Source: a bacterium (GTDB lineage Bacteria; Krumholzibacteriota; Krumholzibacteriia; JACNKJ01). From it: a DNA stretch of 64,000 nucleotides. The DNA lies in assembly GCA_024231955.1 (NCBI GenBank), contig JAAEPZ010000538.1, positions 435,340 to 499,339 of the forward strand, in the 5' to 3' direction. Made by a program: the position numbers and the translations under genes. The notes beneath the pieces are model-generated. The model was not told the DNA's origin, searched no databases, and was given only the letters and a program-made list of their open reading frames with translations. This document shows, piece by piece, positions 17,156-63,197 of this stretch (positions within the stretch are counted from its first letter, which is position 1; each line of letters opens with the position of its first letter).

Positions 17156-20100
17156 ATGCGCAATCTAATCGGGATCGGCCTTTTGGCCCTGCTCATCTCC
17201 GTCCAGTTCGCACAAACCGCACTTGCCGGAGCCAATGAAACCCCCGGCAAGAATTATCAGCCGCACCGGTTCGGCAGCTTCCACGGGAACCTGTTCGAGT
17301 TCGGCTACCAGGATCTGCAGCTTTTCAAAATCCATGTCGTCGAGGATCAGCACTATCGCGTTGGAGCCTGTTACGCCGATTCCAAACGGGACAACTCCCC
17401 CGGCGGCGCCGGTCTGTTCAATTTTCAGGATTTCATCAGCGACAATAAGTACGATGTCATGTTGTTCACCTCCCATGGTACCGCGGATTGGGAAACGGTG
17501 ATCGAATTCTATGAATTCACCGCGCCCGGCTTTCTGATCCGCGCTCAGCAACTGGCGCTATATCACCTAATCTACGATCCCGATGAGGTCATTGCCGTGG
17601 ATGGGGAGGACTGGTTGGGGATCGCCGTCACGGAGAGCTTCTATGACAGGTTCATGAGGACCCCCGACGCCCTGGCCTGGTGGGCCTCCTGCTACTCGAT
17701 CGATATCGAACTGGTCGATCCGGGGCAGGCCCGGGCCTATGTCGGTTATGACGACTATGTCGTGAACATGAAGGTCAACTGCGATGAGCGGTATGTGCTG
17801 GGCCGGATGGACGGCCAGATGGGGCAGCAGTGGCGACCCCTGAAAAAGGCGATCGAGGGGGTCAACTCGCAATGTCCGCCCAACGACGCCTCTCTGGAGG
17901 CCCTGGGGAAGTTGAATACGACTCTCTCCCCCTCCGTGATCGAGTGGGAGCCTACCGGCGTCGTCTGCGTGGTCACGCCGGGACACGTCAAATTAGATAC
18001 GAGTCTCGACGTGAGCATCGATCCCCGTTCGGTGGTCAAGGCCTACGGGGACGCCGACCTCATCAACCATTCCTGGTCCGGCGACGACCGGATCGATTTC
18101 ACGGTCGTCCCGACCAGGCCCTATCCGAATATCGAGTACAGGGTCAAGGAGGCGAAGGCGGTAAGCAAGGCCGATCATGCCCGTCTGGACGGCAACACCT
18201 GGCCGGGGCCGCAGAACGCCTATGGTCCCAACCGCGACGACTTCGTCTGGAACACCACCTGCCCCGGCGGTTCCACACCGCCGTCGACGCCATCGACGCC
18301 GACGCCCGTATCCCCGCCGTCGACACCGACCACTCCGGGCGGCACCACCCGCGTGCCCACACCTGTCACCAACGGCGGGACCACCGATCAGGTGATCACC
18401 ATCACGCTTTACGATGTCCTGACCTGGTGCAGCAATCCCGACACCACGTTCCTCTCCCGCGGCGGCGGCAGCGACATCCTGTTCTGGGATTTCGAGGTGC
18501 CGACGGATGCGCTGCCGGGTACGATCAACACCTTCACCATCACAATCGAGGGGGAGGGTGAACCCTTCGTCGCCCACGGCGAGATCGTCGTGCCGAGTCT
18601 GGTGGCGGCCGCATTGCTGGACAACCCGGCGGTTCTCACCGGCCAGATCCAGGAGAAGAGATTGATTGTGGAGAACAACCGTGAGGTGCCGGTCGATGTC
18701 GATAACCTGACGCTGCTGAGCAGTGAACCGATCATGATCACCCCCGACCTGCCCGGCTTCACGCTGGAGGCGGGGGGGGAGATCGAACTGCTCCTGATGG
18801 TTGACGTCCCCCCGGGGCCCGACAATATGGTCTTCCCAGTTCAGGTGACTGCCGACCTGACCGGTGAAACCTGCGAGATCGGCGGCTTCGATCTCGTCAG
18901 CGGATTGACGATCGTGCTGCCCGGCCAGGACCTTGAGGTGCCCACGGGCTCTCCCGGTACTCCCCGGCCGCTGCCGATCGAGAACACCAGCGGAGTGCCG
19001 TTCGATGTGCAGGTCCTGGCCGTGGATTCGCACGGCTGGCCCGTCTCCGTGCCGCCGGCCCTGCCGCTGGGGCCATTGGAGACGGCCGAGATACCTCTCG
19101 GTTTGAGTGTTCCGCCCGATCCCCTCTTGATCGGTCAGACCGGCAATATCACTCTGGAGCTGGAGGATCCGATCCTGGCCTTGTCATCCACCCATACGAT
19201 CCACTATACGATCGGGCCGGCTCTGGAGATTGTCCTGGGGAGCAGACAGATGGAGAATGTCTATACGGGCTGCGCCGGTTGCCCATTTATGTGGCACCTG
19301 GACCTTCAAAACTCCTCAATCGAGATGATCGAAGGTGAAATCGAGTTGCTCATCGACAGCGGTGGAGCGTTGCCCCTTCTGGCACCCATACCCATCATGA
19401 TGGGACCCGGCGAAATATACCCATTCGATTTCGCACTGCCCGAATTGCCGCCGGGTTTCGCGCCGGGGCTCTACCCGGTGACGATTGAGGCCACGACATC
19501 AAGCGGACTCGGCGATTTCTCGCTGAATACGGAGATGAAGATCACCACACCGGTAACGGCTACCATGATCCAGCGAGCTGTCGCGGGCTATCCGGGCGAG
19601 GAGGCCGTCGTCTCCGCCGTGATCGGGAATCAACGTTCCGACATGCCCATGAACGGCGAGTACGAGATAACGGACTCGATGGGTTGGCTGCCGGAACCGG
19701 TTCTAGGCATATACGATTTCGAGCCGGAGGGCTTGGAAACCCTGGATGTCTTTTTGAGTCCACCGCCCAGGGGGGCGCTGGATTCGACCGAGGTCACGTT
19801 GCGTATCACCATGCTGGATGATTTCGGCGGTCTGCTGGAGGATATGGCGTCAACCTGGCTGAAGGTTTTCGAGGAGCCTGTCGGTATTGAGGATGGTCCG
19901 CCGCCGGCCCACACGGATCTGATGGGCAACTATCCCAATCCGTTCAATCCGCGTACATCCGTCGAGTTCAACCTGGAGCGTGCCGGGGATATTCGGCTGA
20001 GTGTCCACGATGTGGCCGGACGGGTGGTCTCGGTGCTCCACGAGGGCTACGCCGGGGCCGGACGGCACAGTCATATCTGGGAGGGTATGACGGACGACGG

Positions 20101-20182
20101 GGTGGCATCCAGCGGCGTCTACTTCATCAGGTTGGAGACGGCCGACGGAATCTGGTCGAGCAAGGCGGTGCTGATCAGATAG
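17156..20182 (+). CDS. Large secreted protein (1008 aa) with a C-terminal type IX secretion (T9SS, Por_Secre_tail type A) sorting domain and a Pro/Thr/Ser-rich linker
   Basis: GGGAGG RBS; signal peptide LLALLISVQFAQTALA. Last ~80 aa: NYPNPFNPRTSVEFNLERAGDIRLSVHDVAGRVVSVLHEGYAGAGRHSHIWEGMTDDGVASSGVYFIRLETADG match the T9SS CTD consensus (NYPNPFNP...V.L.V.D..GR.V..L....AG.H...W.G.D..G..V.SGVYF.RL). PT-rich linker TPPSTPSTPTPVSPPSTPTTPGG. Confidence 0.8.
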   Translation: MRNLIGIGLLALLISVQFAQTALAGANETPGKNYQPHRFGSFHGNLFEFGYQDLQLFKIHVVEDQHYRVGACYADSKRDNSPGGAGLFNFQDFISDNKYDVMLFTSHGTADWETVIEFYEFTAPGFLIRAQQLALYHLIYDPDEVIAVDGEDWLGIAVTESFYDRFMRTPDALAWWASCYSIDIELVDPGQARAYVGYDDYVVNMKVNCDERYVLGRMDGQMGQQWRPLKKAIEGVNSQCPPNDASLEALGKLNTTLSPSVIEWEPTGVVCVVTPGHVKLDTSLDVSIDPRSVVKAYGDADLINHSWSGDDRIDFTVVPTRPYPNIEYRVKEAKAVSKADHARLDGNTWPGPQNAYGPNRDDFVWNTTCPGGSTPPSTPSTPTPVSPPSTPTTPGGTTRVPTPVTNGGTTDQVITITLYDVLTWCSNPDTTFLSRGGGSDILFWDFEVPTDALPGTINTFTITIEGEGEPFVAHGEIVVPSLVAAALLDNPAVLTGQIQEKRLIVENNREVPVDVDNLTLLSSEPIMITPDLPGFTLEAGGEIELLLMVDVPPGPDNMVFPVQVTADLTGETCEIGGFDLVSGLTIVLPGQDLEVPTGSPGTPRPLPIENTSGVPFDVQVLAVDSHGWPVSVPPALPLGPLETAEIPLGLSVPPDPLLIGQTGNITLELEDPILALSSTHTIHYTIGPALEIVLGSRQMENVYTGCAGCPFMWHLDLQNSSIEMIEGEIELLIDSGGALPLLAPIPIMMGPGEIYPFDFALPELPPGFAPGLYPVTIEATTSSGLGDFSLNTEMKITTPVTATMIQRAVAGYPGEEAVVSAVIGNQRSDMPMNGEYEITDSMGWLPEPVLGIYDFEPEGLETLDVFLSPPPRGALDSTEVTLRITMLDDFGGLLEDMASTWLKVFEEPVGIEDGPPPAHTDLMGNYPNPFNPRTSVEFNLERAGDIRLSVHDVAGRVVSVLHEGYAGAGRHSHIWEGMTDDGVASSGVYFIRLETADGIWSSKAVLIR

Positions 20183-31829: not shown

Positions 31830-31903
31830 CTTAATTACCTCCATTACTTGCTGGGTTTGATTCCATGCGGCCCCCGCCTGGATGACGGGGGCCGGCAACT
31901 GGT

Positions 31904-32497: not shown

Positions 32498-32537
32498 TTT
32501 CAACTCCTTTGGGGCCAGTGGCCCTGATTGTTATTTA

Positions 32538-33059: not shown

Positions 33060-33107
33060 CATTGACTCCCTTTCATCGAGTTTGGTTTGTCTGATGTGAT
33101 TCACTAA

Positions 33108-33506: not shown

Positions 33507-33514
33507 GTTATCCC

Positions 33515-33545
33515 CTTATCGCTAATGAATATTATTAGCAATAAG
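33515..33545. promoter_or_regulatory. Fur/PerR-box-like inverted repeat in the divergent perR / hao promoter region
   Basis: CTTATCGCTAAT-gaatatt-ATTAGCAATAAG (11 of 12 arm matches), AT-rich, 9 bp upstream of the perR start codon. Confidence 0.4.
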
Positions 33546-33725
33546 GATCAGTTTGTCAACCATGTTTTTGGGATTATCTCCATTTTGAGACCCCGTATTA
33601 CGAAACCGGGAGATAATAGTGGTAATGTGGTACGGAAAAGGCTAAGGTCGATTCTGGCCAAGATCTCTCTCTTATATTCAACAGGCGTAGTCCTGATCAA
33701 TTATGCTCAGAAAAGGAGTCCTTCC

Positions 33726-35057: not shown

Positions 35058-35068
35058 GGGGCGCGGAC

Positions 35069-48848: not shown

Positions 48849-48877
48849 AACAACAAGGCCCGCCTGCGGGGCGGGCC
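48849..48877 (-). terminator. Intrinsic terminator after the 48907..49368 gene (minus strand)
   Basis: On the minus strand GGCCCGCC-ccgca-GGCGGGCC followed by TTGTTGTT. Confidence 0.45.
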
Positions 48878-48906: not shown

Positions 48907-49368
48907 TCAGTAGAGGGCCTTGAGTGTGCTCCAGACGATGCTCTCCTCGGAACCCTCCGGAATCCCCGTGACCCATCCGCCGCAATCGCTCTGCGCCACG
49001 GTGATGAGAGGGCGGAAGTCGATGACCTCATCGATAGTGAACTGGAACTCGGCGATCGGCACTCCAACCAGATCGAACAAGACCAGCGTGTAGTCTCCCG
49101 CCTCGGGGACGTCGAACTCGAATTCCAGATCGAACCTGCATATACAATACGCTGCCCACTCAGCCAGATCGATCTCGTAGGCGGCGATCGCCGTGCAGAA
49201 GAACTGGACCTCAAGATCAACCTCGGCGGCGCAGTGATATTGGGCGTTACTGTGATGCAGGGTGACTGTGTTGCCGGTTATATCCAGCCAGATCTCATCA
49301 GCCAGTCCGTTGCCTGCACCGAGGAGCGAAAGAGTCAGGATGAGAGTGATCAGGAGCAATCTGTTCAT
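48907..49368 (-). CDS. Small secreted protein (153 aa) ending in the conserved tail ...VWSTLKALY
   Basis: ATG 49366-49368 with GGAGG RBS. SPase-I-type signal peptide MNRLLLITLILTLSLLGAGNGLA. Acidic, beta-strand-patterned body with 5 Cys. The C-terminal octapeptide is shared with three other proteins in this window. Confidence 0.6.
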   Translation of the reverse strand: MNRLLLITLILTLSLLGAGNGLADEIWLDITGNTVTLHHSNAQYHCAAEVDLEVQFFCTAIAAYEIDLAEWAAYCICRFDLEFEFDVPEAGDYTLVLFDLVGVPIAEFQFTIDEVIDFRPLITVAQSDCGGWVTGIPEGSEESIVWSTLKALY

Positions 49369-49508
49369 GGGTTTACCTCCCTTTTCCGTTGAAGTCGAAT
49401 AGGTTGGTTCGCTGATGATACGATATTCAGTTTCATGAATGCAACATCTTGTGTCGGAAATTGGGCCGCCGGTAATTGCGACGGTGGGAGTGCACACTCA
49501 GTTGCCGC

Positions 49509-50310
49509 TTGAATATAATTCAGTACAGGCTCCTGATGCCGCTCCAGGTATTGCTCTCGGTGGGAACGATTATGACGGTGTTCAGGGTCACATTGCATCC
49601 AACCACTTCAAAGGCTTCGTACTCATCATCCACAAGTTGGAGCATACCGGAGTCTTGAGCTTCCTGGACGGCAATACACAGATTGTCAAAGAGATACCCG
49701 CCGAAATCCGTCAGGTCGACCGTGCCCAGCAGCACGACGGGTCCCGGTTGAACCGATGACCAGGCGAGTGTAATACCGGAATTGATATCACCTATAAACA
49801 AGTCGGTTGTCCACGTTACGTTCATTGAGCCGAGAGGAGCTCCCCCCAGGTCTACAGGCATATCGGGAATGCTGAATTCCGCTGCGGTTATGGCATCGAG
49901 ATCGTAATTATCCAGCCACGCTAAAATGAAAAGCTGGCGCGGTTGATTAAGAACAACTTCGACTATATGCGGGGGAGTGCAGTCACCATCGGTAGCAACC
50001 GGAATCATATCACCAGATATCCCGATGAAACTGGTGGATTGGGCCTGCACAGCTCCGCAGGCAGCGAACAGCAGGAGTGCGGCGATAACAAATACTAATT
50101 TTCGCATAGGGAGCTCCTTATGTCGTCAAGATAGTGTCCGGCGGCAGATCTCGTCATGTCGGTCAAAATAGATGATCTCCCGCCAGGTGGTACGGGCGGT
50201 TATATGAAATCCAATTGTATGAGTGTTCATCCATAAGATGAACATTGTAATTATAATTGGGGAAGGTATGAATGTCGAGTGAAATAGAGCTTATTAGGGA
50301 AAGTCCCCAT
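49509..50310. repeat. Copy 1 of a ~0.8-kb duplicated unit (gene A plus ~200 bp of 5' region)
   Basis: Long near-identical stretches shared with 52938..53720. Examples: ttgaatataattcagtacaggctc, ttgtcaaagagatacccgccgaaatccgtcag, and the upstream block catagggagctccttatgtcgtcaagatagtgtccggcggcagatctcgtcatgtcggtcaaaatagatgatctcccg. Confidence 0.6.
49520..50107 (-). CDS. Secreted (possibly lipo-)protein paralog A (195 aa) ending ...TWSGIRSLY
   Basis: AAGGAG RBS. Signal peptide MRKLVFVIAALLLFAACGAVQA. Paralog of 52949..53521 (conserved blocks AEFSIPDMP.DLGGAPLGSM.VTW, QPGPVVLLGTV.LTDFGGYLFDNL, SNTWSGI(K/R)SLY). More AT-rich than its surroundings. Confidence 0.65.
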   Translation of the reverse strand: MRKLVFVIAALLLFAACGAVQAQSTSFIGISGDMIPVATDGDCTPPHIVEVVLNQPRQLFILAWLDNYDLDAITAAEFSIPDMPVDLGGAPLGSMNVTWTTDLFIGDINSGITLAWSSVQPGPVVLLGTVDLTDFGGYLFDNLCIAVQEAQDSGMLQLVDDEYEAFEVVGCNVTLNTVIIVPTESNTWSGIRSLY

Positions 50311-50324
50311 CCAACAGAGGGTTC

Positions 50325-51551
50325 CTACAGCAACTCCGTTATCTCGTCGCTCGTATCGGAGTCGATCCGAATCGGTTTCCCCGCCTCTATCTCAACCGTC
50401 TCCACACCCTCGACGCAGGCATTGATCAGATGTTCCCATTCGAAACGGGACTCGTACTCGTCGCACTTCTCGGGTCTGGGGGCCGTGGCGGGGCTCTTGG
50501 GTACGAAGATCGTGCAGCAATCCTCGTAGGGACGGATCGAGATGTCGTGCGTCCCTATCCGGCGCGCTATATCGATGATCTCGGTCTTGTCCATGCAGGC
50601 GACCGGACGGATCACCGGCATGGTGGTGACGCAGTTGATCGACAGCATGCTCATCGGCGTTTGCGACGCCACCTGGCCGAGGCTTTCGCCGTTGGCCAGA
50701 AGCGCGCAGCCGATCCTCTCCGCGACCCTGGCGGTCACGCGGTACATCATGCGCCGCATCACCGTCATCCCGTAGCTCTCCGGAACCTGTTCGAAGATCG
50801 CCCTCTGCAGATCCGTGAAGGGGACGATGTGCACCGCAAACTTTCCCGAGGGCAGGTAGTGGGCCAGCTTCTCCGCCAGGTCGAACACCTTCTGCCGGGC
50901 GCGCGGCGACGTGTAGGGGGGGGAATCGAAGTGCAGACCGTCCACCGCCAGACCCCGCTTCATCATCAGGTAGCCCGCCACCGGAGAATCGAGCCCGCCC
51001 GAGAGCATCAGCAGCGAGGTGCCGTTGACTCCGATGGGCAGCCCCCCCTGCCCCGGAATCACCCGGGAGACGATGCGGGTTCTCCCCCTCTGGATATGGA
51101 GCGTGATCTTCAGATCGGGATTTTCGAGATCGACCGCGACGGCGGAGTGCTCGGCCACGTAGCGCCCGACGATGTTGGCCACCTCAGGGGAGCTTGGGCG
51201 GAACCCCTTGTCCGACCTCTTGGCGACCACCTTGATGCTCCGGCCACACCCCTCCAGCTCCCGGGCCACCTCGAGCGTAGCGCTCTTGATCGCCTCGATC
51301 TCGCTTGCGCAGGCGGAATAGAACCGATAGCTCTGAATGCCGAAGACGAAATCGAGCTGCTCGATCACCAGCGTGGGATCGGTGTCGTGCAGTTCGATGT
51401 CGATATTGGCGGGGCCCTTGACGAAGGTCAACCGATCCAGCCCCGCGAGTCTCCGTTTCACCGCGTGGAGGATCGAGTTGGTGAAGCGGTGCCTGTTTCT
51501 CCCCTTGAGGAAGGCCTCGCCGAAGGTCGCGATTATGCCGTCGTATTTCAT
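50325..51551 (-). CDS. thiI: tRNA 4-thiouridine(8) synthase / tRNA sulfurtransferase ThiI
   Basis: THUMP domain N-terminus and PP-loop SGGLDSPVAGYL. Length 408 aa. Confidence 0.85.
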   Translation of the reverse strand: MKYDGIIATFGEAFLKGRNRHRFTNSILHAVKRRLAGLDRLTFVKGPANIDIELHDTDPTLVIEQLDFVFGIQSYRFYSACASEIEAIKSATLEVARELEGCGRSIKVVAKRSDKGFRPSSPEVANIVGRYVAEHSAVAVDLENPDLKITLHIQRGRTRIVSRVIPGQGGLPIGVNGTSLLMLSGGLDSPVAGYLMMKRGLAVDGLHFDSPPYTSPRARQKVFDLAEKLAHYLPSGKFAVHIVPFTDLQRAIFEQVPESYGMTVMRRMMYRVTARVAERIGCALLANGESLGQVASQTPMSMLSINCVTTMPVIRPVACMDKTEIIDIARRIGTHDISIRPYEDCCTIFVPKSPATAPRPEKCDEYESRFEWEHLINACVEGVETVEIEAGKPIRIDSDTSDEITELL

Positions 51552-51559
51552 TCCATGTC

Positions 51560-52684
51560 CTATCGGAGCTTGCTGATCGTCGCGTTGAAAATATCCAGGA
51601 AACGTCGAATCTCCTCGCTCGTGGTCCGATGCGAGAGTGAGATCCTGATAGTCTGACCCGCCCGCTCCCGGTCACCGGTGAGGGCCAGGATCGCCGGCGA
51701 GATCATGGCCTTTCTGGATGAGCAGGCGGACACGGTGGCGATGTAAACCTCCTCGGCCGAGAGCCCCTGCAGCATGGTCTCCGGTTTGATGCCGACAAGC
51801 GAGTAGTTCAGGATAAACGGGGAGGCCGACTCCGGCGAGTTGCAGACGATGTCGGGGATGTCGCCAATTCCCGTCCGGAGCATTCGGTTGAGGGTCTTTG
51901 CCCGCTCCAGCTTGCTCTCCAGATCCTCCGTGGCCAGACGCAGCGCTTTGGCGAAGGCCGCCGCCCGCGGCACATCGGCCGTGCCCGAACGCAGTTCGAA
52001 CTCCTGCCCCCCGCCGTGAAGTTGCGGCGAGAGTTGCTGCCGTTCCCGCAGGAGAAGCGCACCACTGCCCTTCAGGCCGAAGAACTTGTGCGCCGACAGG
52101 GAGAGAAGATCCACCGGCGTTTCCGCCAGGGAGAACGGCAGCTTGCCTACGCCCTGCACTCCGTCGACATGGAAGAGGGCCCGGTGATTCGCGAGTCGCC
52201 GGGAGATCTCGCCGATGGGATTGACGGCGCCCGATTCGTTGTTCACGAACATGATGGACACCAGAATCGTGTCGGCGGTCAGGGCTTCCTCCACCTGATC
52301 GGGCGTGACCGCTCCGTCGGGACCGACCGGCAATCGGGTCACCACGAAACCCTGCGCCTCCAGCCACACCATCACCTGCTCCACCGACGGATGCTCGCTG
52401 TTGGTGGTCAGGATATGGTTCCCGCGAGCTTTGTAGAATTCGGGGATCCCCTTCAGGGCCAGGTTGTTGCTCTCGGTGGCGCCGGAGGTGAACAGGGTCC
52501 GGTATCCGCTCCCGCCCAGCACCTCCGCCACCTGGGCGCGAGCTTGCGCCAACAGCTGCTCCGCCCGCTCCCCGGGACGATGCAGCGAGTGCGGATTGGC
52601 CCAGAAGGTCGCGTAGACGTCGTTGAAGGTCTCGAGCACCAGCGGGTCGGGCGGCGTGGTGGCGGCGTTGTCCAGATAGATCAT
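51560..52684 (-). CDS. Cysteine desulfurase (NifS/IscS-like class V aminotransferase)
   Basis: MIYLDNAATTPP start, PLP-lysine motif SLSAHKFFGLKGSGAL, and active-site loop ...SACSS. The alternative upstream start at 52744 adds 20 aa. Its stop lies 8 nt before the thiI start. Confidence 0.8.
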   Translation of the reverse strand: MIYLDNAATTPPDPLVLETFNDVYATFWANPHSLHRPGERAEQLLAQARAQVAEVLGGSGYRTLFTSGATESNNLALKGIPEFYKARGNHILTTNSEHPSVEQVMVWLEAQGFVVTRLPVGPDGAVTPDQVEEALTADTILVSIMFVNNESGAVNPIGEISRRLANHRALFHVDGVQGVGKLPFSLAETPVDLLSLSAHKFFGLKGSGALLLRERQQLSPQLHGGGQEFELRSGTADVPRAAAFAKALRLATEDLESKLERAKTLNRMLRTGIGDIPDIVCNSPESASPFILNYSLVGIKPETMLQGLSAEEVYIATVSACSSRKAMISPAILALTGDRERAGQTIRISLSHRTTSEEIRRFLDIFNATISKLR

Positions 52685-52937
52685 GAGCGGTTCCAGGTTC
52701 GACCTGCTTGAATGAAGGTTCGGTTCGGCGAGCCGGGAAACCATCCGGATCCTGCTCCCCGAATCGATCCCAGTGTAGCACAGCTCAGTAATTGATGACG
52801 CTTGAACTTCACTGCTTTGACCGAATCGTCTTGAGCTATCCGGCCTCTACCAGGGTACCTCCGGGTGATCCGTCCCCTGCTCGATTGGGCACAAGAATGG
52901 GGAACCCATCGGCTCCCCATTTTCAACTCATATAAGT

Positions 52938-53720
52938 TTGAATATAATTCAGTACAGGCTCTTGATGCCGCTCCAGGTATTGCTCTCGGACGGAACGAAT
53001 ATGACGGTGTTCAGGATCACATCGAAGCCGTACGCATCATGGTATTCGTACTCATCATCTACAATGCCAAGGTTACCGGTTATTGGATGGGGCTGGAAGG
53101 TGATAAGCAGATTGTCAAAGAGATACCCGCCGAAATCCGTCAGTTCGACCGTGCCCAGCAGCACGACGGGTCCCGGTTGTGGCGACTGCCAGGCTAGTGA
53201 AATACTGAAACCGGTCTCAACTATTACCAGGTCGGTTGCCCACGTTACGCTCATTGAGCCGAGAGGAGCTCCCCCCAGGTCTTCAGGCATATCGGGAATG
53301 CTGAATTCAGCACCTGTCAAGGCATCGATCGCATACATGTCCAGAATCGCCAAGATATATATCTGACGCGGTTGATTGAGATCAACTTCGACGATATTCG
53401 GGTAGTGCCATTCGGGGATGGGGTCACCAAACATACCGATATAATTCTCGTACTGGGCTTGCACAGCTCCGCAGGAAGCGAACAGCAGCAGTGCAGCGAT
53501 AACAATTACCAGTTTACGCATAGGGAGCTCCTTATGTCGTCAAGATAGTGTCCGGCGGCAGATCTCGTCATGTCGGTCAAAATAGATGATCTCCCGACAG
53601 ATGGTACGGGCGGTTATGCAAAATCCAATTACATGAGTGTTCATCATAAGGTGAACAATATAATTATGACATAGGGGGGTGGGGATGTCGAGTGAAACAA
53701 TGCTTATTGGGACTTGAAAC
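52938..53720. repeat. Copy 2 of the ~0.8-kb duplicated unit (gene B plus ~200 bp of 5' region)
   Basis: See copy 1. The upstream blocks of the two copies match over ~80 consecutive nt with only a few substitutions. Confidence 0.6.
52949..53521 (-). CDS. Secreted (possibly lipo-)protein paralog B (190 aa) ending ...TWSGIKSLY
   Basis: Signal peptide MRKLVIVIAALLLFASCGAVQA, with the same RBS context as paralog A. Second copy of the duplicated unit. Confidence 0.65.
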   Translation of the reverse strand: MRKLVIVIAALLLFASCGAVQAQYENYIGMFGDPIPEWHYPNIVEVDLNQPRQIYILAILDMYAIDALTGAEFSIPDMPEDLGGAPLGSMSVTWATDLVIVETGFSISLAWQSPQPGPVVLLGTVELTDFGGYLFDNLLITFQPHPITGNLGIVDDEYEYHDAYGFDVILNTVIFVPSESNTWSGIKSLY

Positions 53721-54171
53721 CGTCTGGTGGATTCCCTCCATCATACAGAATCTCAGGAGGCCAATTCCGTAGCAATGGAATCGCAGCAACCTGCCGCCGT
53801 CCCGCATACGGCGGCGAGTGTCTCCCGGATCGCAATCATTTGTCTGGGGTGAGATGTACTCGAATGAGTGAAAACGGCTGCCGGCCAATAGCGTAGGTCG
53901 GGCTGGATACAAAAAGAGCGGGGAGCTCCGCGCAACAGCGGATTGAAGGAAAGCAGACCCAGAGCCAAGTGACCCATCCCTGAGGAACCAAAGTCTCGGA
54001 ACCTTTCGATTCCCATCCCATGTCCGGAGTCACTCAGGCCTTCCTCTTACCGCCTGTGTTGTGCTCGACTCCCCGCTTGGAGAGCGGGACCTTCCCGCTT
54101 AAATGATACTCATCTTACCTGCAAGTGGAGTATAGACCCATTTCCGGGACAGTCAATTTTGCCGGCGGGAT

Positions 54172-54198
54172 ATAAAAAACCCCGGTCCGGGACCGGGG
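54172..54198 (-). terminator. Rho-independent terminator of the fad operon (minus strand)
   Basis: On the minus strand CCCCGGTCC-g-GGACCGGGG followed by TTTTTTAT, 40 nt after the acyl-CoA dehydrogenase stop. Confidence 0.6.
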
Positions 54199-54238
54199 TG
54201 CAGTGTCGAATCGAGCGGACGAATAGGGACCTGATCGC

Positions 54239-56047
54239 CTAAAGTGGCCAGATTTCCCTGTCGACAAGCATGTCCGCCACCTTGCGCCGCAGCGCCACCG
54301 TGTTGATCGGCGTATGCTTGACGACTCGCCTCAAACCGGCCAGCGATGTGGTCAGCATGTCACCTTCACAAACGGCCGCCAGTGTTTCGCGCCCTCTGAT
54401 TTCGAGTCTGTTCATCGCGTCGTTGCAGTAGATGCGCGTCAGGTCTCCGGCCATCTCGGCCGCGACGGCATCATCGCGCTGCTGCAGTTTCAACGCACGC
54501 AGCACGGAGGACTCCATGGCGTAGACATCCATGATCATGTCCGAGAGCAGCGCGATCACCTCTTCATGATCCATGGGCGCCTTCAACTTTTCACCCATCT
54601 CCTGGGCGACCGTCCCGAGCGCCAGAAGCACGGTCTTCTTGGCCTGCGCGATGAACTTCTGCTCCGGCGCCAGGAAGCCGTCTCCGGCTTCACCGGTGTC
54701 CAGCGCAGGTGGGCTGGTCAGTTCATCCACAACCTCCTTGGCCCTGGCAAAGATCGGCAACTGGTTCTTGGCGGCCTTCTTGAGGACATCACCCGAGATG
54801 ATGAACCGGTTGATCTCGTTGGTGCCCTCGAAAATGCGGTTGATGCGGCTGTCGCGGTAGAAACGCTCGGCCGGATATTCCTGCGTGTAGCCGTAACCAC
54901 CGTGGATCTGCACACATTCGTCGGCGCAGTAATCCAGGGCTTCCGAGCAGAACACCTTCATCATGGAGCATTCGGTCATGTATTCGCGGATACCCACATC
55001 GATCATCTTGTTGTCGTAGGCCTCATCGCTCTTGTCGAGGCGGCCGATGTTCCGATCGATATAGCCTGCGGTGCGATAGACCATGCTCCTGCCGGCATAC
55101 ACTCTTGCCGCCCCCTCGGCGATCTTGTGTTTGATCATGCCGAAGTCGGTGATGGGACGCTTGAACTGCTGCCGGCCCTTCCCGTATTTCACGGATTCCA
55201 TCACGCACAACTCGGCGGCGCCGACAGCCCCCGCGCCCAGCTTGAAGCGGCCGACGTTGAGAATGTTGAACGCGATGGCCGCGCCGCGGCCGATCCTGCC
55301 CAGCAGATTCTCGACCGGCACCTTGACGTCCTCCATGATCAGCGTGCGGGTCGAGGAGCCCTTGATCCCCAGCTTCTTCTCTTCGGGACCGACGCTGAGT
55401 CCCTCCATATCCTTGTCCATGATGAAGGTGGTGAACTTGTCGCCGTCCACCTGCGCGAAGACGATGAAGATGTCGGCAAAGCCGGCGTTGGTGATGAACA
55501 TCTTCTCGCCGTTGAGCACGTAGTGGGTGCCATCCTCGCTGAGGATCGCCTTGGCTCGAGCCGCGACGGCATCGCTGCCGCTGCCGGCTTCGGTCAATGC
55601 GTAGGCGCCGAGCCATTCACCCATCGCCAGCTTGGGCAGATATTTCTCTTTTTGCTCAGGTGTGCCGAAATACACGATCGGCAACGTGCCGATACCGGTG
55701 TGGGCGCCATGCCCCACCTGGAAAGAGCCGCTTGCGCCCAGCTTCTCGGCGACCAGCATGCCCACCGCTTTGGAGAGAGCCATGCCGCCGTACTGCTCGG
55801 GGACATCGACGGCCAACAGCCCCTGCATGCCCGCCTCTTTGAGGAGGCCGGGCATGACGCCATCCTCCAGAGCCTCCAGGCCGTCCAGCTTCGGGAGTAC
55901 GGAACCCTCGACGAATTTCAGAACCAGGTCGCCGATCATCTTCTCTTCCTGGGAGAACTCTTCGGGGATGAACACCATATCCAGCGGATGCTCCTCCACC
56001 AGGAAGCTGCACCCACGGATCAAATCGCTGTTGTTGCCCTCTGCCAT
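54239..56047 (-). CDS. fadE: Acyl-CoA dehydrogenase (long FadE-type, ~600 aa)
   Basis: ACAD N, middle and C domains (GSGSDAVAARAKA, YGGYGYTQEYPAERFYRDSRINRIFEGTNEI) plus a C-terminal extension. AAGGAAAA RBS. Confidence 0.8.
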   Translation of the reverse strand: MAEGNNSDLIRGCSFLVEEHPLDMVFIPEEFSQEEKMIGDLVLKFVEGSVLPKLDGLEALEDGVMPGLLKEAGMQGLLAVDVPEQYGGMALSKAVGMLVAEKLGASGSFQVGHGAHTGIGTLPIVYFGTPEQKEKYLPKLAMGEWLGAYALTEAGSGSDAVAARAKAILSEDGTHYVLNGEKMFITNAGFADIFIVFAQVDGDKFTTFIMDKDMEGLSVGPEEKKLGIKGSSTRTLIMEDVKVPVENLLGRIGRGAAIAFNILNVGRFKLGAGAVGAAELCVMESVKYGKGRQQFKRPITDFGMIKHKIAEGAARVYAGRSMVYRTAGYIDRNIGRLDKSDEAYDNKMIDVGIREYMTECSMMKVFCSEALDYCADECVQIHGGYGYTQEYPAERFYRDSRINRIFEGTNEINRFIISGDVLKKAAKNQLPIFARAKEVVDELTSPPALDTGEAGDGFLAPEQKFIAQAKKTVLLALGTVAQEMGEKLKAPMDHEEVIALLSDMIMDVYAMESSVLRALKLQQRDDAVAAEMAGDLTRIYCNDAMNRLEIRGRETLAAVCEGDMLTTSLAGLRRVVKHTPINTVALRRKVADMLVDREIWPL

Positions 56048-56059
56048 TTCTTTTCCTTT

Positions 56060-57247
56060 CTAGGATTCTGCTCTTGTGAAAATCCCTGCGGCACCCATGC
56101 CGCCACCGATACACATGGTAACCATGGCGTTTTTCCCTTTGCGCCGGTTCAATTCGTGAATAACCTGCACCGTCAATTTGGCGCCTGTACAACCCAGGGG
56201 ATGTCCCAGCGCGATTGCGCCACCGTTGACGTTGACCTTTTCGGTATCCAGACCCAGCGTACGGATAACCGCAAGGCTCTGGGATGCGAAAGCCTCATTC
56301 AGTTCGACAAGATCAATGTCGTCCAGATGCAAACCGGCTCGGTTCAGCGCAAGCGGCACGGATTTGATCGGACCCAGCCCCATCAGTTCCGGTGCGACGC
56401 CCATCGTTGCATATGTCACGTAGCGAGCCAAGGGCTTTAACCCGTGTTTCCTGGCAAAATCCGCCGAAGTGACGATCACTCCCGCCGCGCCGTCACTCAT
56501 CTGACTGGTGTTCCCCGCCGTCACCGAACCGCCCGTTTTGAATGCGGGCCTCAATTTGGCCAATGCCGCCGGTGTTGTTTCCGGGCGCGGGCCCTCGTCC
56601 TGCTCGAAGAGTATCTCCCGGCTGTTCGTCCGGGTCAGTTTCCCCGCCGGCGACACCTGCCGCACCTGCAGGGGCGTGATCTCCTCAGCGAACAGTCCGT
56701 TCGCCTGCGCCGTCAACGCCCGGCTATGACTGGTGCAGGCGAAGAGGTCCTGATCCTCACGGCTGATCCCCTCCTGCTCGGCCACCCGCTCCGCGGTCAG
56801 TCCCATGTTCATGTAGATCTCGGGGTACTCCGCCGTCAGTGTGGGGTTGGGCATGATCTTGCCGCCCCCCATGGGGATCAGACTCATGGATTCCACACCC
56901 CCGGCAATCACGCAATCGGCGGCACCGCATGCTATCTTCAGCGCGGCGATGTGAATCGCCTCCAGCCCGCTGGCACAGAATCGGTTGAGGGTCATGGCCG
57001 ACACCGCTTCAGGCAGACCAGCCAGCAGTACGACCTGTCGCGCCATGTTCATACCCTGCTCCCCCTCGGGGAAAGCGCAACCCAACACGAGATCGTCGAT
57101 GAGATCGGGCGTCAACCCGGGCGCCCGTTTCAGCAAGCCCCGCACGACTGTAGCCGCCATGTCGTCGGGACGCGTATCCGCCAGAGTCCCCTTGAGCGCC
57201 CGCCCGACCGCCGTGCGTGTCGCCGCAATGATCACTGCTTCCTGCAT
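56060..57247 (-). CDS. fadA: Acetyl-CoA C-acyltransferase (3-ketoacyl-CoA thiolase)
   Basis: [15 protein letters not shown]. Active-site Cys in NRFCASGL. C-terminal [20 protein letters not shown]. Confidence 0.9.
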
Positions 57248-57284
57248 CGTCTCATCTCCCTGTTGGTGAGTCGGTTGATCGGCG

Positions 57285-59675
57285 TCAGTTACGCAACGGT
57301 TTGCCCGTTTTCAGCATATGCTGCATCCGTTCGAGCGTTTTCCGCTCGCCCAACAGCGAGAGGAAGGCCTCACGCTCCAGGTCCAGCAGGTACTGCTCGC
57401 TCACATTCTGCGTGCCGCTGAGGTCGCCGCCGCACAACACATGGGCCAGCTTGAGGCCTATCAGGCGATCGTGTGCGCTGATGAAGTTGCCCTCCAGCAT
57501 ATTGAAGAGCCCGGCCTCAAGCACCGCTCTCCCCGCACGACCCGCAACCGGGATATCCATACGTGGACTGCCGGGGTCGAACCCCGCATTGGCCAGACCC
57601 AGGACAGTCGCTTTGGCATCGCTGATCTGGCGGTCCCGGTTCATGGTGACATCATCGGTAGCGCGGAGAAAGTTGAGATTGCGCGCATCGACCGCACTTG
57701 TAGCCACCTTCGCCATGCCTATGGTCTCGAATGTCTTGCGCAGGGGCGGGATCAGGTTATCGCCCCCGTCCCAATGCTCCAGATTGCGCAGGTAGAGCTC
57801 TTTGCTCCCTCCGGCGGCGGGGATCACGCCAACGCCCACCTCCACCAGACCGATGTAGGTTTCGGCATGGGGGCGGGCACGAGTGCCGTGAAGCGTGAAC
57901 TCGGCGCCACCGCCCAGTGTCAAACCGAAGGGGGCGACGACAACCGGCTTGCGCGAGTACTTGATCGCCTGCGTGGTGTTCTGAAAAGCGGCGATCATCA
58001 GATTCAGATCCTCCCAGTTCCCCTCCAACGCCTCGAGCAGGACCAGCATCAGGTTGGCGCCGACCGAGAAGTTCTCCCCCTGGTTGCCGATGACCAGACC
58101 CGCCCAGTCACCCTCCTCCATCTTCTTCAGAGACTGGTTCGTCAAGCCCATGATGTCGCCGGCGATGGTGTTCATCTTGGAGTGGAACTCCAGATTGAGC
58201 ACACCCTCACCCAGATCGATGAGACTGGCGCCGGCATTGCCTTGCAACTCGGCGCCCGCCTGCTTGAGATATGTGAGCCGAATCTTGCCCGGCTCCACCG
58301 GCGGGGTTTCGTATTCGCCGCGCCCGGGATGCCAGACACCGCGACTGCCATCCTGCAGGCGATAGAAACTCTCGCCGCCCGCGGCCAGCATCGCGTCGAC
58401 CCAGGGTGGAGGCGTCAGGCCGTCGCTCTTCATCCGCTTGAGCACCTGCCCGACACCCATGGCGTCCCAGAGCTCGAAGGGGCCGACCTCCCAGCCGAAG
58501 CCCCACGTCAGGCCATCGTCGATTGGGACCGGTGTGGCGCAAATCTCTCCGACGCGGTTGGCGCAGTAGATGAACAGGCGGCTCAGGGTCCGCCAGGTGA
58601 ACTCGGCGGCGCGTCCGCGTCCCAGGGCGAGGGCAGCCGTTCGCTTCTTGACGTCCTGGATCAACTTGAACGATTCCAGTTCCGGGAATTTCGGTTTCAG
58701 TCGATCGCGGTATTTCAGCGTGGCGAGATCCAGCGTCAGGATCTTGCGTTTGCCCCGTTCGTCGCGACTCTTCTTGTAGAAGCCGCCGCCCGATTTGTCG
58801 CCGAGGAGATTCGCCTCAATCATCTTCTGCAGAAGAGGATGTGTGCGGAACAGATCGCGTGCTTCATCATCGGGACACCCGTGATAGACATTGCCCGCCA
58901 CGGCCATGAATGTGTCGAGGCCGACGAGGTCGGCGGTGCGGAAGCTGGCGCTCCGGGGGCGCCCGACCAGCGGGCCGGTGAGTCGATCCACCTCTTCGGG
59001 CGTGAGATCCAGTTCGATCATGGCGGTTATCGCATCCAGCAGCCCGAAAACACCAACGCGGTTGGCCACGAAATTAGGCGTGTCGGCGGCCAGAACCACC
59101 CCTTTGCCCAGCCGGCGGTCGACAAAGTCGTGCAGTAATTCGGTTACGGCCGGATCGGTGTCCGGCGTTGCGATGATTTCAAGCAGCTTGAGATAGCGGG
59201 GCGGATTGAAGAAGTGGGTGCCCAGGAAGCAGCGGCGGAAATCAGCGTCCAGCCCCTCGGCCATGGCCGCGATGGAGAGCCCCGACGTGTTGCTGCTGAC
59301 GATGCTGCCCGGGCGTCGCCGCCTGGCGACCTCCGTCAGAATCTGACGCTTGATCTCGGGATCCTCCTTCACGACCTCGATGATCCAGTCGACCTCGCCG
59401 ATCCGGTGGAGGTCGTCATCGAAGTTGCCGACCTCGATCATCTCCGCCAACGCGTTGTCGAAGAGGGGGGCGGGTTTTGCCCGCAGACATCGATTCAGAG
59501 CTTCACGCGCCAGGCGGTTGCGCGCCGCCGGCTGGCTCTTTTGCTCCTCCGGCAGATCGGGCGGCAGAATATCAAGCATGATTGAGGGGACACCGGCATT
59601 GGCGAGATGGGAGGCGATCGCACTGCCCATCACTCCGCTTCCAAGAACCGCCGCTCTCTTGATTGTGGTCACCAT
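57285..59675 (-). CDS. fadN: Bifunctional 3-hydroxyacyl-CoA dehydrogenase / enoyl-CoA hydratase (FadN-type order: HCDH N-terminal, ECH C-terminal)
   Basis: Start ATG 59673-59675 (GGAGG 5 nt upstream), giving MVTTIKRAAVLGSGVMGSAIASHLA (Rossmann GxGxxG). C-terminal crotonase fold (VVVAPFGLTLGGGAEF). Confidence 0.85.
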   Translation of the reverse strand: MVTTIKRAAVLGSGVMGSAIASHLANAGVPSIMLDILPPDLPEEQKSQPAARNRLAREALNRCLRAKPAPLFDNALAEMIEVGNFDDDLHRIGEVDWIIEVVKEDPEIKRQILTEVARRRRPGSIVSSNTSGLSIAAMAEGLDADFRRCFLGTHFFNPPRYLKLLEIIATPDTDPAVTELLHDFVDRRLGKGVVLAADTPNFVANRVGVFGLLDAITAMIELDLTPEEVDRLTGPLVGRPRSASFRTADLVGLDTFMAVAGNVYHGCPDDEARDLFRTHPLLQKMIEANLLGDKSGGGFYKKSRDERGKRKILTLDLATLKYRDRLKPKFPELESFKLIQDVKKRTAALALGRGRAAEFTWRTLSRLFIYCANRVGEICATPVPIDDGLTWGFGWEVGPFELWDAMGVGQVLKRMKSDGLTPPPWVDAMLAAGGESFYRLQDGSRGVWHPGRGEYETPPVEPGKIRLTYLKQAGAELQGNAGASLIDLGEGVLNLEFHSKMNTIAGDIMGLTNQSLKKMEEGDWAGLVIGNQGENFSVGANLMLVLLEALEGNWEDLNLMIAAFQNTTQAIKYSRKPVVVAPFGLTLGGGAEFTLHGTRARPHAETYIGLVEVGVGVIPAAGGSKELYLRNLEHWDGGDNLIPPLRKTFETIGMAKVATSAVDARNLNFLRATDDVTMNRDRQISDAKATVLGLANAGFDPGSPRMDIPVAGRAGRAVLEAGLFNMLEGNFISAHDRLIGLKLAHVLCGGDLSGTQNVSEQYLLDLEREAFLSLLGERKTLERMQHMLKTGKPLRN

Positions 59676-59811
59676 CTGAACCTCCACTCGGGATATTACG
59701 TATTTGATATTCTGCTGTCAGGTCGGGGTGTTCGTCAATGGCTCATTCAATTTGCGATACATGTTGCTGCGCCTGGACTCTATCTGGCCTTGTGTGGGGC
59801 CTCCATCCTGA

Positions 59812-59843
59812 AATGAAAAAGGTCCGGGATGAACTCCCGGACC
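59812..59843 (-). terminator. Rho-independent terminator after the 59878..61071 gene (minus strand)
   Basis: On the minus strand GGTCCGGGAG-ttcat-CCCGGACC followed by TTTTTCATTTC. Confidence 0.6.
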
Positions 59844-59877
59844 CGTCCTGTACCTGATGTCTGTTAGCGGTGAACCG

Positions 59878-61071
59878 TCAGTACAGACTTTTGATCGTGC
59901 TCCAGTTCTGCTTCTGGGCGGCGATTTCGCCGCAATCGACAATGCGTGAACCCATCAGTTCGCCGCAAGCGCCGGATGCTCTGCATGGGGAATTGCTCTG
60001 CAGGTAGTAATTGCCGCTGCTGTTTGTGCCGCAGAATCGGGGATTGAGGCAGAGATTGCTGTTGGTGTCCTTTTGCGCGACAATTGCCGGAACCCAGTTA
60101 TAGGTGTCCGTCTCGTTGACGTTGCCGAAGATGTCGGTGCAGGTGATCGTCGCCGTTCCCGAACCGAGGTATAGACCCTCAACCAATGTGTTGTAGGCAA
60201 TGATGCATTTCGTGATCTCCACTGCGGACGCACCGGTGATCGACAGACCGGATCCAGGATTGGATGATCCGTTTTCGACGATCGTGCAACTGGTGATCGT
60301 GGGTGACGATGACTCGCATCTGATGCCGCCGCCAAAACCGCCGCCGTAGTTGCCGTAGATAGTCAGCAACGTCATCTGGGCATCGCTGTCGCTGTTGAGG
60401 TAGAACGCCGCGCCGTCACCGGTGGATGTGTTCTCGTTGATGTTGCTGTGATTGAACGTGAACGGGGAGTTGTCGGCATAGATGCCGCCACCGGCGCTGC
60501 TGGTGGTGTTGTTCTCGATGATGCAGTCCTGGATTGACGGTGTCGAACCTTCAATCAGTATGCCGCCGCCATTGCCGGCTCCGGTTGTCGTGTTCGTGGT
60601 GATGGTCGTCAGAGACAGTGTGGGAGTCGAACCGTTGATGCAGGCCATCCCGCCACCACCACCCGCGGATGTGTTGTTGCGAATGATGCAGTTTTCGATG
60701 CTCGGTGAGCTGTTGTCCAGCAGGATGCCGGCACCCTTGTCGGCACCTGTGGTCACACCGCCTTTGATGGTGAAGCCGACGATGCTGGCGGTATTGTCGA
60801 CTGCAGTACAGATGATGGCTCGCCCCGCGCCGTTGGCGTCAATGGTCGCACAGTAAGCGCCGCCCGTGTTGCTGGTCAGCGTGACGCCGGATTTCATCAC
60901 AAGGTCATTTTCCAGGTAGACGCCGCAAGCTACGAGGACAATGTCACCCGAGGTTGCGGCTGCCAGAGCCGCAGCGATTGTGCCGTAGGTACCGGGAACA
61001 TCGAGGGTAGCTGCAGAACCTGCAGTCGCCAGGCAGAGAAGCAATAGAGTCATGATAGCTTTGAAGCGCAT
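59878..61071 (-). CDS. Secreted right-handed parallel beta-helix (PbH1/pectate-lyase-like) repeat protein ending ...NWSTIKSLY
   Basis: GGAGG RBS. Signal peptide MRFKAIMTLLLLCLATAGSAA. Repeated I..C.I.NN.....GGG units (CIIRNNTSAGGGGG, CIIENNTTSSAGGG, CTIVENGSS). C-terminal tail shared with three other proteins. Confidence 0.65.
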   Translation of the reverse strand: MRFKAIMTLLLLCLATAGSAATLDVPGTYGTIAAALAAATSGDIVLVACGVYLENDLVMKSGVTLTSNTGGAYCATIDANGAGRAIICTAVDNTASIVGFTIKGGVTTGADKGAGILLDNSSPSIENCIIRNNTSAGGGGGMACINGSTPTLSLTTITTNTTTGAGNGGGILIEGSTPSIQDCIIENNTTSSAGGGIYADNSPFTFNHSNINENTSTGDGAAFYLNSDSDAQMTLLTIYGNYGGGFGGGIRCESSSPTITSCTIVENGSSNPGSGLSITGASAVEITKCIIAYNTLVEGLYLGSGTATITCTDIFGNVNETDTYNWVPAIVAQKDTNSNLCLNPRFCGTNSSGNYYLQSNSPCRASGACGELMGSRIVDCGEIAAQKQNWSTIKSLY

Positions 61072-61256
61072 TTCAGCCTCCAGGGTGATCAGTTACAGGA
61101 CCGGCCACACTCAGGCAAACGCCATGAATCGAAGTACCGGCTTTTGTGAAATCGGCACTTATTCAGAACGGGTTGAGCGCTTTGTTGGCAAATAGAGTGG
61201 CTGAAACAGAGATTCTATGACCGGCGGAAACGATAAGGAAGAATGGGGAAGGGGGA

Positions 61257-63065: not shown

Positions 63066-63197
63066 GGAATCATTCTCCACGCTTCAGCCGGACGAGAAAC
63101 CGGCCGAAACAATAAACAGGACGGTTTGCACTTCGGAGCACCCGAAGATGCGCACCTGGCCTGATCCGATGTTAGAGACAGGAGAAGCTAGCACGCA

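Follow-up and report, generated by a model that had tools for sequence, protein, structure and literature searches.

Why should exported proteins with unrelated bodies end in the same few residues? This question is raised by a 64-kb stretch of a Krumholzibacteriota chromosome (positions 435,340 to 499,339 of contig JAAEPZ010000538.1, assembly GCA_024231955.1; hereafter the window, numbered from its first letter), in which the tail W-S-[GT]-[IL]-[KR]-[AS]-L-Y-stop closes four minus-strand open reading frames (ORFs). A reading made from the sequence alone had proposed the tail as a candidate undescribed sorting or anchoring tag. Our analysis supports this candidacy through the unrelated bodies of the tagged proteins, their export signals, the swapping of the tail with other C-terminal modules and the lack of a Pfam or NCBIfam model for it, while the sorting role itself is argued by analogy. 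On balance, we lean towards a modular C-terminal localisation tag, whose helix would dock non-covalently on a conserved envelope receptor, holding or positioning the protein at the envelope or surface.

Four exported proteins with a shared C-terminal tail

The four genes, their tag modules, their predicted signal peptides and the regulatory-like sites beside them are as follows.

48907..49368, minus strand: p153, 153 aa, exported, acidic, without a family match; ends in ...ESIVWSTLKALY / EGSEESIVWSTLKALY
48910..48957, minus strand: 16-residue tag module of p153; 8-residue core WSTLKALY at 48910-48933, stop codon at 48907-48909
49300..49368, minus strand: predicted signal peptide of p153, MNRLLLITLILTLSLLGAGNGLA, then DE; hydrophobic h-region, cleavage site placed by eye
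48857..48877, minus strand: terminator-like hairpin directly 3' of p153
49520..50107, minus strand: p195, 195 aa, exported, paralog of p190; ends in ...ESNTWSGIRSLY / IVPTESNTWSGIRSLY
49523..49570, minus strand: 16-residue tag module of p195; core at 49523-49546
50042..50107, minus strand: predicted signal peptide of p195, MRKLVFVIAALLLFAACGAVQA, then Q (putative site); a lipobox-like FAAC leaves signal peptidase I versus II ambiguous
50250..50278, minus strand: sigma-70-like promoter match (11/12) upstream of p195
52949..53521, minus strand: p190, 190 aa, exported, paralog of p195; ends in ...ESNTWSGIKSLY / FVPSESNTWSGIKSLY
52952..52999, minus strand: 16-residue tag module of p190; core at 52952-52975
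53456..53521, minus strand: predicted signal peptide of p190, MRKLVIVIAALLLFASCGAVQA, then Q (putative site)
53663-53691, minus strand: sigma-70-like promoter match upstream of p190, at the paralogous site
59878..61071, minus strand: p397, 397 aa, exported right-handed beta-helix with a fold like that of Pel9A, AlgE4 and rhombotarget A; ends in ...QKQNWSTIKSLY / EIAAQKQNWSTIKSLY
59881..59928, minus strand: 16-residue tag module of p397; core at 59881-59904
61009..61071, minus strand: predicted signal peptide of p397, MRFKAIMTLLLLCLATAGSAA, then T (putative site); helix at residues 2-13 in the AlphaFold2 (AF2) model
59820..59844, minus strand: terminator-like hairpin directly 3' of p397

Inspection of the ORFs and their N-termini bore out that each of the four minus-strand genes combines a signal-peptide-like N-terminus (4/4) with the shared tail. 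As the sequence-only reading had also claimed, no other protein of the window ends this way: a six-frame regular-expression search and, separately, a degenerate DNA pattern covering all four tails found exactly four sites, whereas the DNA pattern had no match in 100 dinucleotide-preserving shuffles. Synonymous codons differ among the tails (CTC/ATC, AAG/AGG/AAA, GCC/AGC/AGT, CTC/CTG), and the DNA on their 3' side is unrelated, the p195/p190 pair excepted. These differences indicate that the tail is shared as a feature selected at the protein level, and they rule out a DNA repeat as its source.

Two of the four proteins are recent paralogs, as had been noticed before: p195 and p190 are 69% identical in amino-acid sequence. 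The duplication takes in the gene and ~190 nt of its 5' region (window 49509-50298 and 52938-53711, 3.4 kb apart), and over gene and 5' region the copies share 82-88% DNA identity (75-88% over the two spans just given). Between the copies lie thiI (50325-51551) and a cysteine desulfurase gene (51560-52744), and the duplicated part includes the strong sigma-70-like promoter match.

Beyond this pair, the tail-stripped bodies of p153, p195/p190 and p397 showed no mutual relation by BLAST, jackhmmer or hhalign (hhalign probabilities 3-4%, the 4% being a faint N-terminal alignment of p153 with p195). The body of p153 had no relatives among the tagged bodies in jackhmmer searches, and the p195 family had none beyond its own paralog among 5.8 billion proteins. 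Comparing the tail-stripped bodies of tagged proteins did yield two distant relatives of p195, L013 and L019 (MAG binchicken_co97_412; MAG, metagenome-assembled genome), both of them tagged too. For p397, a Pfam Beta_helix match (E=1.5e-13) agrees with the AF2 model, a right-handed beta-helix with a mean predicted local distance difference test score (pLDDT) of 93.6; its best Foldseek match is 1ru4, the pectate lyase Pel9A, and the AlgE4 epimerase and rhombotarget A are also among the nearest solved structures. The AF2 model of p195, for which the paralog was the only alignment partner, was unusable (pLDDT 31.7). The earlier claim of three unrelated folds thus stands at the level of sequence, with a fold in hand for p397 only, and the three search methods found no shared ancestry of all four bodies that would turn the tail into plain paralogy.

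A Shine-Dalgarno-like AGGGAGG precedes the p153 ATG at 49368. Since the tagged genes have promoter- or terminator-like sites of their own and are separated by housekeeping genes (thiI, cysteine desulfurase and a fatty-acid beta-oxidation operon), they look like independent transcription units. The locus tags GY835_14795, GY835_14810 and GY835_14830 are recorded in the MAG of the window.

Spread, passengers and anatomy of the tail

We searched one genome per species (185,579 species, 596 Gb, the window's own MAG not among these representatives) with an exact-match DNA pattern capturing all four window tails. The pattern is restricted to GC-rich codons and Y-TGA, so that absence from cultured or low-GC taxa is not claimable; taxon labels are those written in the public records. 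The scan returned 50 exact matches in 47 loci, against a chance expectation of ~26 under equal base frequencies by our own calculation. About 38 of these matches close ORFs that have signal peptides where complete (mostly ~100-430 aa, a few cut by the locus edge), all in MAGs labelled Krumholzibacteriota, Eisenbacteria/Eiseniibacteriota, Fibrobacteraceae, Poribacteria, Coatesbacteria, Fermentibacteraceae or 'uncultured bacterium'. The other 12 look like chance: the ORFs that they close are at most 22 aa long or lack a signal peptide, and they lie in unrelated taxa, Pseudoalteromonas, Desulfopila, flavobacteria and a streptomycete among them.

Single MAGs had four or at most five strict matches, and a protein-level rescan of the loci added tagged genes in their flanks. 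Further tagged proteins came from metagenomes. The tail is lineage-restricted, occurring in a set of largely uncultivated phyla: Krumholzibacteriota, Eisenbacteria, Latescibacterota, Fibrobacteraceae-labelled MAGs and others. Tagged genes also form tandem arrays, with at least 13 on one 22.9-kb contig (L003 and L038, CAZTWK010000053.1), five in L037 and four in L040. The first of these, in a Fibrobacteraceae-labelled MAG, lines up its genes of ~220 aa in a row; three other MAGs have arrays of Big_5-containing tagged genes (L037, L040 and L014).

Within the fetched loci, whatever the frame, the core motif occurs 65 times in ORFs of 110 aa or more; in 65 of 65 cases it lies within 2 residues of the stop, and it is never internal. 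A heuristic based on hydrophobicity recognised a signal-peptide-like h-region in 48 of 55 tagged proteins; in the other seven, the ORF is truncated at the locus edge or fragmented or, in P0007, the start is called upstream of the signal peptide. The motif is therefore neither private to the four window proteins nor equally common on cytoplasmic ones: ~38 more signal-peptide ORFs carry it, and none was seen on a cytoplasmic protein. HMMER with the tail alignment A5, a profile that kept 26 p190-specific columns, passed only P0002 and P0123 among 1.84 billion representatives; P0123 is of interest for its four tandem tags, described below. A word-index protein search with a padded, tail-only profile gave 18 candidates, none of which scored.

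The bodies that carry the tail are diverse. Stripped of it, they fall into at least 25 clusters without BLAST links, and iterative searches with the stripped bodies keep the families separate. Across 63 tagged proteins, Pfam recognised Big_5 (7), Beta_helix (6), CBM9 (2), Chlam_PMP, DUF5123, Laminin_G_3, CBM96, DUF7901 and a polysaccharide-lyase-like core, while NCBIfam recognised DNRLRE, choice-of-anchor F, the DVUA0089 family and the body of the PEP-CTERM protein PepA. In other lineages, these passenger types bear PEP-CTERM or LPXTG anchors or those of type IX secretion (the T9SS). The tail itself is covered by no Pfam or NCBIfam model in the window proteins or the 63 tagged proteins, a motif search of the PDB returned only a designed coiled coil (GEIKAL), and the searched literature held no description of such a tail.

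Swapping of C-terminal modules is best seen in the family of p397, which has hundreds of relatives. Among 119 listed homologs from other contigs, 15 have a related tail at the C-terminus or at most 2 residues from it, and a sixteenth has it 12 residues short of the end; a Latescibacterota chromosome encodes one of the tailed homologs. Their tails read [ST]-W-[GS]-x-[ILVM]-K-[AS]-[LMYF]-[YF], either bare or with R, AD or E after it. At the same position, other homologs have a T9SS C-terminal domain (CTD; FlgD_ig/Por_Secre_tail, ending ...RMxLIK) or a dockerin-like end (...GNWGPCP). Tag and T9SS CTD never occur together in one tagged protein.

What is conserved is longer than the octapeptide first described. 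The unit spans ~16 residues, [VTI]-A-[VT]-E-x-x-[TS]-W-[GS]-x-[IV]-K-[SA]-L-Y, at times followed by R or a few more residues. The counts below come from 78 distinct tails, with the tryptophan numbered 0.

Position -10: Cys frequent (23/78)
Position -7: V, T or I
Position -6: A (38/78)
Position -5: V or T
Position -4: E (38/78)
Position -1: T or S (66/78)
Position 0: W (77/78)
Position +1: G or S (78/78)
Position +2: variable
Position +3: I or V (65/78)
Position +4: K (76/78)
Position +5: S or A
Position +6: L (68/78)
Position +7: Y (74/78)

The sequence-only reading had missed the A at -6, the E at -4 and the T/S at -1, and its W-S start gives way to W-G in most relatives. Its picture of a tail of identical length with a free terminal tyrosine is right for the lineage of the window, where the W-S form ends at Y; elsewhere the ending is YR, F-AD, Y-AE or something longer. 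In relatives from soil and rhizosphere YR prevails, and the Latescibacterota chromosome shows ...AMFAD, ...AMYAE, ...SRYGGKAEEN and ...GKYKDD, so that R, AD, AE, GGKAEEN and KDD are all tolerated after the motif. A Cys stands 9-11 residues before the tag W in at least eight otherwise unrelated passenger families (C-x3-A-x-E-x-x-T-W-G...; for example L003, L009, L016, L019, L039, L043 and the p397 family). This residue may lock the end of the folded passenger by a disulfide, or may be part of the tag.

Modelling suggests a short helix at the end of a disordered linker. For p397, AF2 is confident of the beta-helix (pLDDT >90) to about residue 380, residues 381-390 drop to a pLDDT of 54, and tag residues 390-396 form a short helix at ~68. 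Per-column conservation of the core has its periodicity maximum at 100 degrees (8.45) as against 2-3 at 160-180 degrees, a test that is partly circular, and this maximum places W, I/V, K, L and Y on one helical face. The T/S at -1 and the frequent E/Q at +2 would fit a helix N-cap. We dropped the hydrophobic moment as evidence of amphipathicity: at 100 degrees it is 0.26-0.46 for the core, and 11% of shuffles reach the observed value, which is not significant.

Tandem tags, joined by linkers of 8-12 residues, occur in two members of one lipoprotein family (N-termini ...LMSGCGDD and ...LISGCSNT). One, P0123 (L051:10001-10819; GCA_964596775.1, CAZQVN010000020.1), has the four copies TTWGRIKALYR, TTWSTIKGVYS, GTWGRIKALIA and VTWGGIKAQVL; the other, in L060 (JGI Ga0180429_10008587, ORF ending near 5774), has the two copies STWGSIKALYW and STWGSIKALYL. 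The existence of such copies means that the unit can work, or is at least tolerated, away from a free carboxylate. A scan of metagenomic DNA for two tags gave 16 matches, of which L060 alone is truly tandem; most others pair a single terminal tag with a half-match that lies downstream by chance, and in a few the ORF is short or lacks the tag.

Genomic surroundings and the search for a partner

The window is ordinary chromosomal DNA. Its genes serve lipid and nucleotide metabolism and beta-oxidation, or encode a hybrid-cluster protein, multihaem cytochromes, two-component regulators and an efflux system of the resistance-nodulation-division (RND)/OEP type. It also encodes T9SS cargo, listed here for context.

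17156..20182, plus strand: 1008-aa exported protein with a FlgD_ig-type CTD; ends in ...SGVYFIRLETADGIWSSKAVLIR

The CTD of this protein matches FlgD_ig at E=1.8e-5 (25.1 bits, just below the gathering score of 27), in line with the earlier statement that the genome uses T9SS and that the tail is far shorter than a T9SS CTD. A classical T9SS cargo thus coexists with tagged proteins in the window genome. In other genomes, too, CTD-bearing enzymes adjoin tagged genes, among them an M14 carboxypeptidase, a PAD, an arylsulfotransferase and an M6 peptidase.

When all ORFs of the 47 loci and the window were clustered, the only recurrent non-tagged neighbour families were T9SS-CTD proteins and TPR Ser/Thr kinases, and no exosortase, rhombosortase or sortase was seen in the 8-21 kb flanks of ~50 loci or in the 64-kb window. 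The kinases are large proteins combining zf-HC2, Ser/Thr kinase and TPR domains, found near tagged genes in three genomes (window 20200-23040, minus strand; L003:3654-6626; L042), and they probably represent a family abundant in these phyla.

Conservation of gene order extends to a marine metagenome, where L048 (JGI 3300009008, Ga0115649_1000972) is syntenic with window 57285-63080. Its order is an NFACT-family gene, the tagged beta-helix gene P0005 (45% identical to p397) and a 3-hydroxyacyl-CoA dehydrogenase/enoyl-CoA hydratase gene; between the latter two, L048 has an insertion, made up of a pair of beta-helix genes that follow P0005 and bear FlgD_ig T9SS CTDs, two hypothetical ORFs and a gene for a TetR-family regulator.

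Genes beside the Big_5 arrays were considered as partners (L037:320-1324, minus strand; L040:3285-4619, minus strand, 4538-5515, plus strand, and 5597-7522, minus strand). A polysaccharide deacetylase adjoins the arrays in both MAGs, and L040 adds a GT2 glycosyltransferase and a sulfatase-family protein. By analogy, this company hints at a link with exopolysaccharide synthesis reminiscent of PEP-CTERM/exosortase loci. As partners of the tag we rejected these genes: two related MAGs are too narrow a base, and none is a credible candidate.

Two further loci of the window stand apart from the tagged genes. An 825-aa protein (1816-4293, plus strand) fuses a KAP-family P-loop NTPase with a formylglycine-generating-enzyme (FGE-sulfatase) domain, an unusual combination. 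An anaerobe-type cluster at 25549-36532 encodes a hybrid-cluster (prismane) protein, a 4Fe-4S ferredoxin-domain protein, a flavodiiron-like (ODP and flavodoxin) protein, a rubrerythrin-like and a peroxiredoxin-like ORF and, at 33525-36532, two multihaem cytochromes c.

What the tail may do

In operational terms the tail qualifies as a C-terminal protein-sorting tag: one short end motif recurs on many signal-peptide proteins with unrelated bodies, keeps to certain lineages and, from homolog to homolog, changes places with other anchors. It shares with the signals of PEP-CTERM/exosortase, GlyGly-CTERM/rhombosortase, LPXTG/sortase, MYXO-CTERM and IPTL-CTERM a short terminal signature on many unrelated exported proteins per genome, substrates in tandem arrays and passengers with 'choice-of-anchor', DNRLRE and PepA-like domains; the fold of p397 even resembles that of the rhombosortase substrate rhombotarget A. 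In those signals, however, the signature is followed by a transmembrane helix and a basic cluster, and a dedicated transpeptidase of the membrane does the processing. The tag has at most 0-7 residues after the motif and no hydrophobic span, and the NCBIfam sortase-type models do not match it. As the sequence-only reading had argued, it is not a sortase-type signal, because it lacks the transmembrane helix and basic cluster. With the C-terminal signal of the beta-barrel assembly machinery (BAM) the tail shares its extreme C-terminal position and an aromatic last or penultimate residue. Its conservation periodicity is helical (peaking at 100 degrees, not 160-180) rather than alternating, its passengers are soluble folds rather than barrels, and a predicted disordered linker separates motif from body. 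The misfit to the BAM signal noted earlier therefore holds, since there is neither an alternating beta pattern nor a barrel.

How might such a tag work? In the docking reading towards which we lean, the protein would first be exported by Sec and its passenger would then fold. A flexible linker of 8-10 residues would present the 8-residue helix, whose conserved face (W, I/V, K, L, Y) would dock non-covalently into an envelope receptor, either an outer-membrane protein or a lipoprotein, encoded elsewhere than beside its substrates. Docking would retain or position the protein at the cell envelope or surface, and tandem copies would add avidity. We favour docking over cleavage or recognition of the free carboxylate because C-terminal extensions are tolerated and rare tandem copies occur. 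A purely mechanistic analogy is the S-domain of secretins with its pilotin (PulD-PulS, MxiD-MxiM). There, a lipoprotein offers a groove in which a short C-terminal peptide, disordered otherwise, becomes helical, and this sets outer-membrane targeting; the tag, similarly, is modelled as a disordered linker with a short helix and is conserved on one side. S-domains differ in being confined to a single family, the secretins, instead of dozens of unrelated passengers, and show no sequence similarity to the tag, for which no pilotin-like partner was identified here.

Several points weigh against this reading. The sorting role is argued entirely by analogy with known tags. Counts of tagged proteins cover the window and the scanned loci rather than the whole proteome of the window's MAG. 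The regular expression used to collect tails itself fixes the constrained positions, which makes the periodicity test partly circular; the helix is predicted with moderate confidence, and the hydrophobic moment of its core is unremarkable. Tandem tags are limited to two proteins of one lipoprotein family. Finally, the neighbours include no candidate receptor, peptidase or translocon; ordinary genes, T9SS-CTD cargo and TPR kinases stand there instead.

A more ambitious and clearly less probable proposal is that the tail marks a previously unrecognised sorting or surface-anchoring pathway of candidate phyla related to the Fibrobacteres-Chlorobi-Bacteroidetes (FCB) group. Such a pathway would run parallel to T9SS, and a dedicated envelope receptor or translocon would read the 8-residue helix on its flexible linker, with dozens of substrates per genome; the displayed substrates would be adhesin-like beta-helices, proteins with carbohydrate-binding modules (CBMs) and Ig-like domains, and lipoproteins with tandem tags.

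Could T9SS itself, or another translocon, read the tail? The tail would then be a minimal outer-membrane translocation signal, possibly removed later, which we hold to be doubtful. The comparison is close in some respects: T9SS CTDs (type A, TIGR04183/PF18962; FlgD_ig-like, PF13860) are likewise C-terminal and modular on Sec-exported beta-helix, Ig-like and CBM passengers, and share genomes and gene neighbourhoods with the tag. Cargo of T9SS needs SprA, PorV and PorU for its export, and PorU cleaves off the CTD; what is seen of the tag in this respect is its coexistence with such cargo. In beta-helix homologs the tail sits exactly where CTDs sit and is never combined with one, T9SS cargo adjoins tagged genes in tag-bearing genomes, and CBM9, CBM96, pectate-lyase-like beta-helix and Big_5 passengers normally act outside the cell. 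In Porphyromonas gingivalis, truncation studies of RgpB and HBP35 reportedly found the extreme C-terminus of the CTD to be critical for export. A CTD, however, is a folded Ig-like domain of ~70-100 aa, as opposed to a linker and helix of 8-16 aa, and ends in ...K-h-x-L-h-[KR], a motif unrelated to the tag. PF18962, PF13860 and TIGR04183 had no match in the four window proteins at E<=1, nor were they among the families of the 63 tagged proteins. Lacking a folded CTD, the tail is not a T9SS domain. The coexistence of tagged and CTD forms in one genome, even in one neighbourhood, suggests different fates; tandem and extended versions would be unusual for a cleaved secretion signal, and no translocon gene is linked to the tag among the ORFs of the loci and window.

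Alternatively, the tail might be an interfacial amphipathic helix that binds lipid or lipopolysaccharide directly, without a protein receptor, which we judge a little less likely still. The anchors of PBP5/6 and the membrane-targeting sequence of MinD are also short C-terminal helices on a flexible tether, composed of aromatic, aliphatic and Lys/Arg residues. The predicted helix of the tag has an interfacial composition, in which W and Y flank a middle of I/V and L, and a Lys, often joined by an Arg at the very end, could snorkel; avidity might grow with tandem copies, and the surroundings of the loci yielded no partner gene. Known membrane-targeting helices, however, span 10-20 aa and conserve amphipathicity, not sequence, whereas the tag is near-invariant at five positions, W, K, L and Y among them, across phyla and passenger families. 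For a stable hold on a membrane, eight residues are very few, the hydrophobic moment does not stand out, and the upstream A-x-E-x-x-[TS] has no obvious lipid-binding role.

Far less plausible is a C-terminal ligand of a periplasmic PDZ protease or sensor (Prc/Tsp-, CtpA- or DegS-like), which would make the tail a mark for degradation or processing, or an envelope-stress signal. Outer-membrane proteins whose C-termini end in Y-x-F activate DegS through its PDZ domain, and the tail too is strictly C-terminal with an aromatic end. PDZ recognition, though, needs the terminal carboxylate and the last 3-4 residues, and here the carboxylate-bearing residue varies (Y, R, D, E, N, L), internal tandem copies occur, and the most conserved W (-8) and K (-4), counted from the C-terminus, lie outside that range; a common degron on dozens of unrelated surface-type proteins would also have no obvious rationale. 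That the tail has no tag function, being chance, plain paralogy or the structural end-piece of one divergent superfamily, is hardly credible and already largely refuted: the p195/p190 paralogy, the many tagged proteins of ~200 aa without a family match, the lack of folds for p153 and p195, and the faint p153/p195 alignment speak for it, but none of 100 shuffles matches, clearly different folds (beta-helix, Big_5 Ig-like, CBM9, Laminin_G) are tagged, the tail swaps with other modules inside one family, searches with stripped bodies do not merge families, and the linker is predicted to be disordered, which would put the tail outside the passenger fold.

C-terminal sorting signals have repeatedly led to new envelope machineries: sortases, exosortases, rhombosortase and T9SS. 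With its 8-16 residues and no transmembrane segment, this tag cannot use the mechanism of any characterised sorting system, and a flexible linker with an 8-residue helix is an architecture without a described counterpart among C-terminal sorting and anchoring signals. If functional, the tag could serve as a compact display or anchoring tag. The set of exported, surface-type proteins that it marks is substantial and belongs to phyla for which metagenomes are almost the only source; nearly all of these proteins are now annotated as 'hypothetical'. A hidden Markov model of the tail would class these proteins as a regulon-like set, make the surface proteome of these bacteria predictable and give a handle on the protein that reads the tag.

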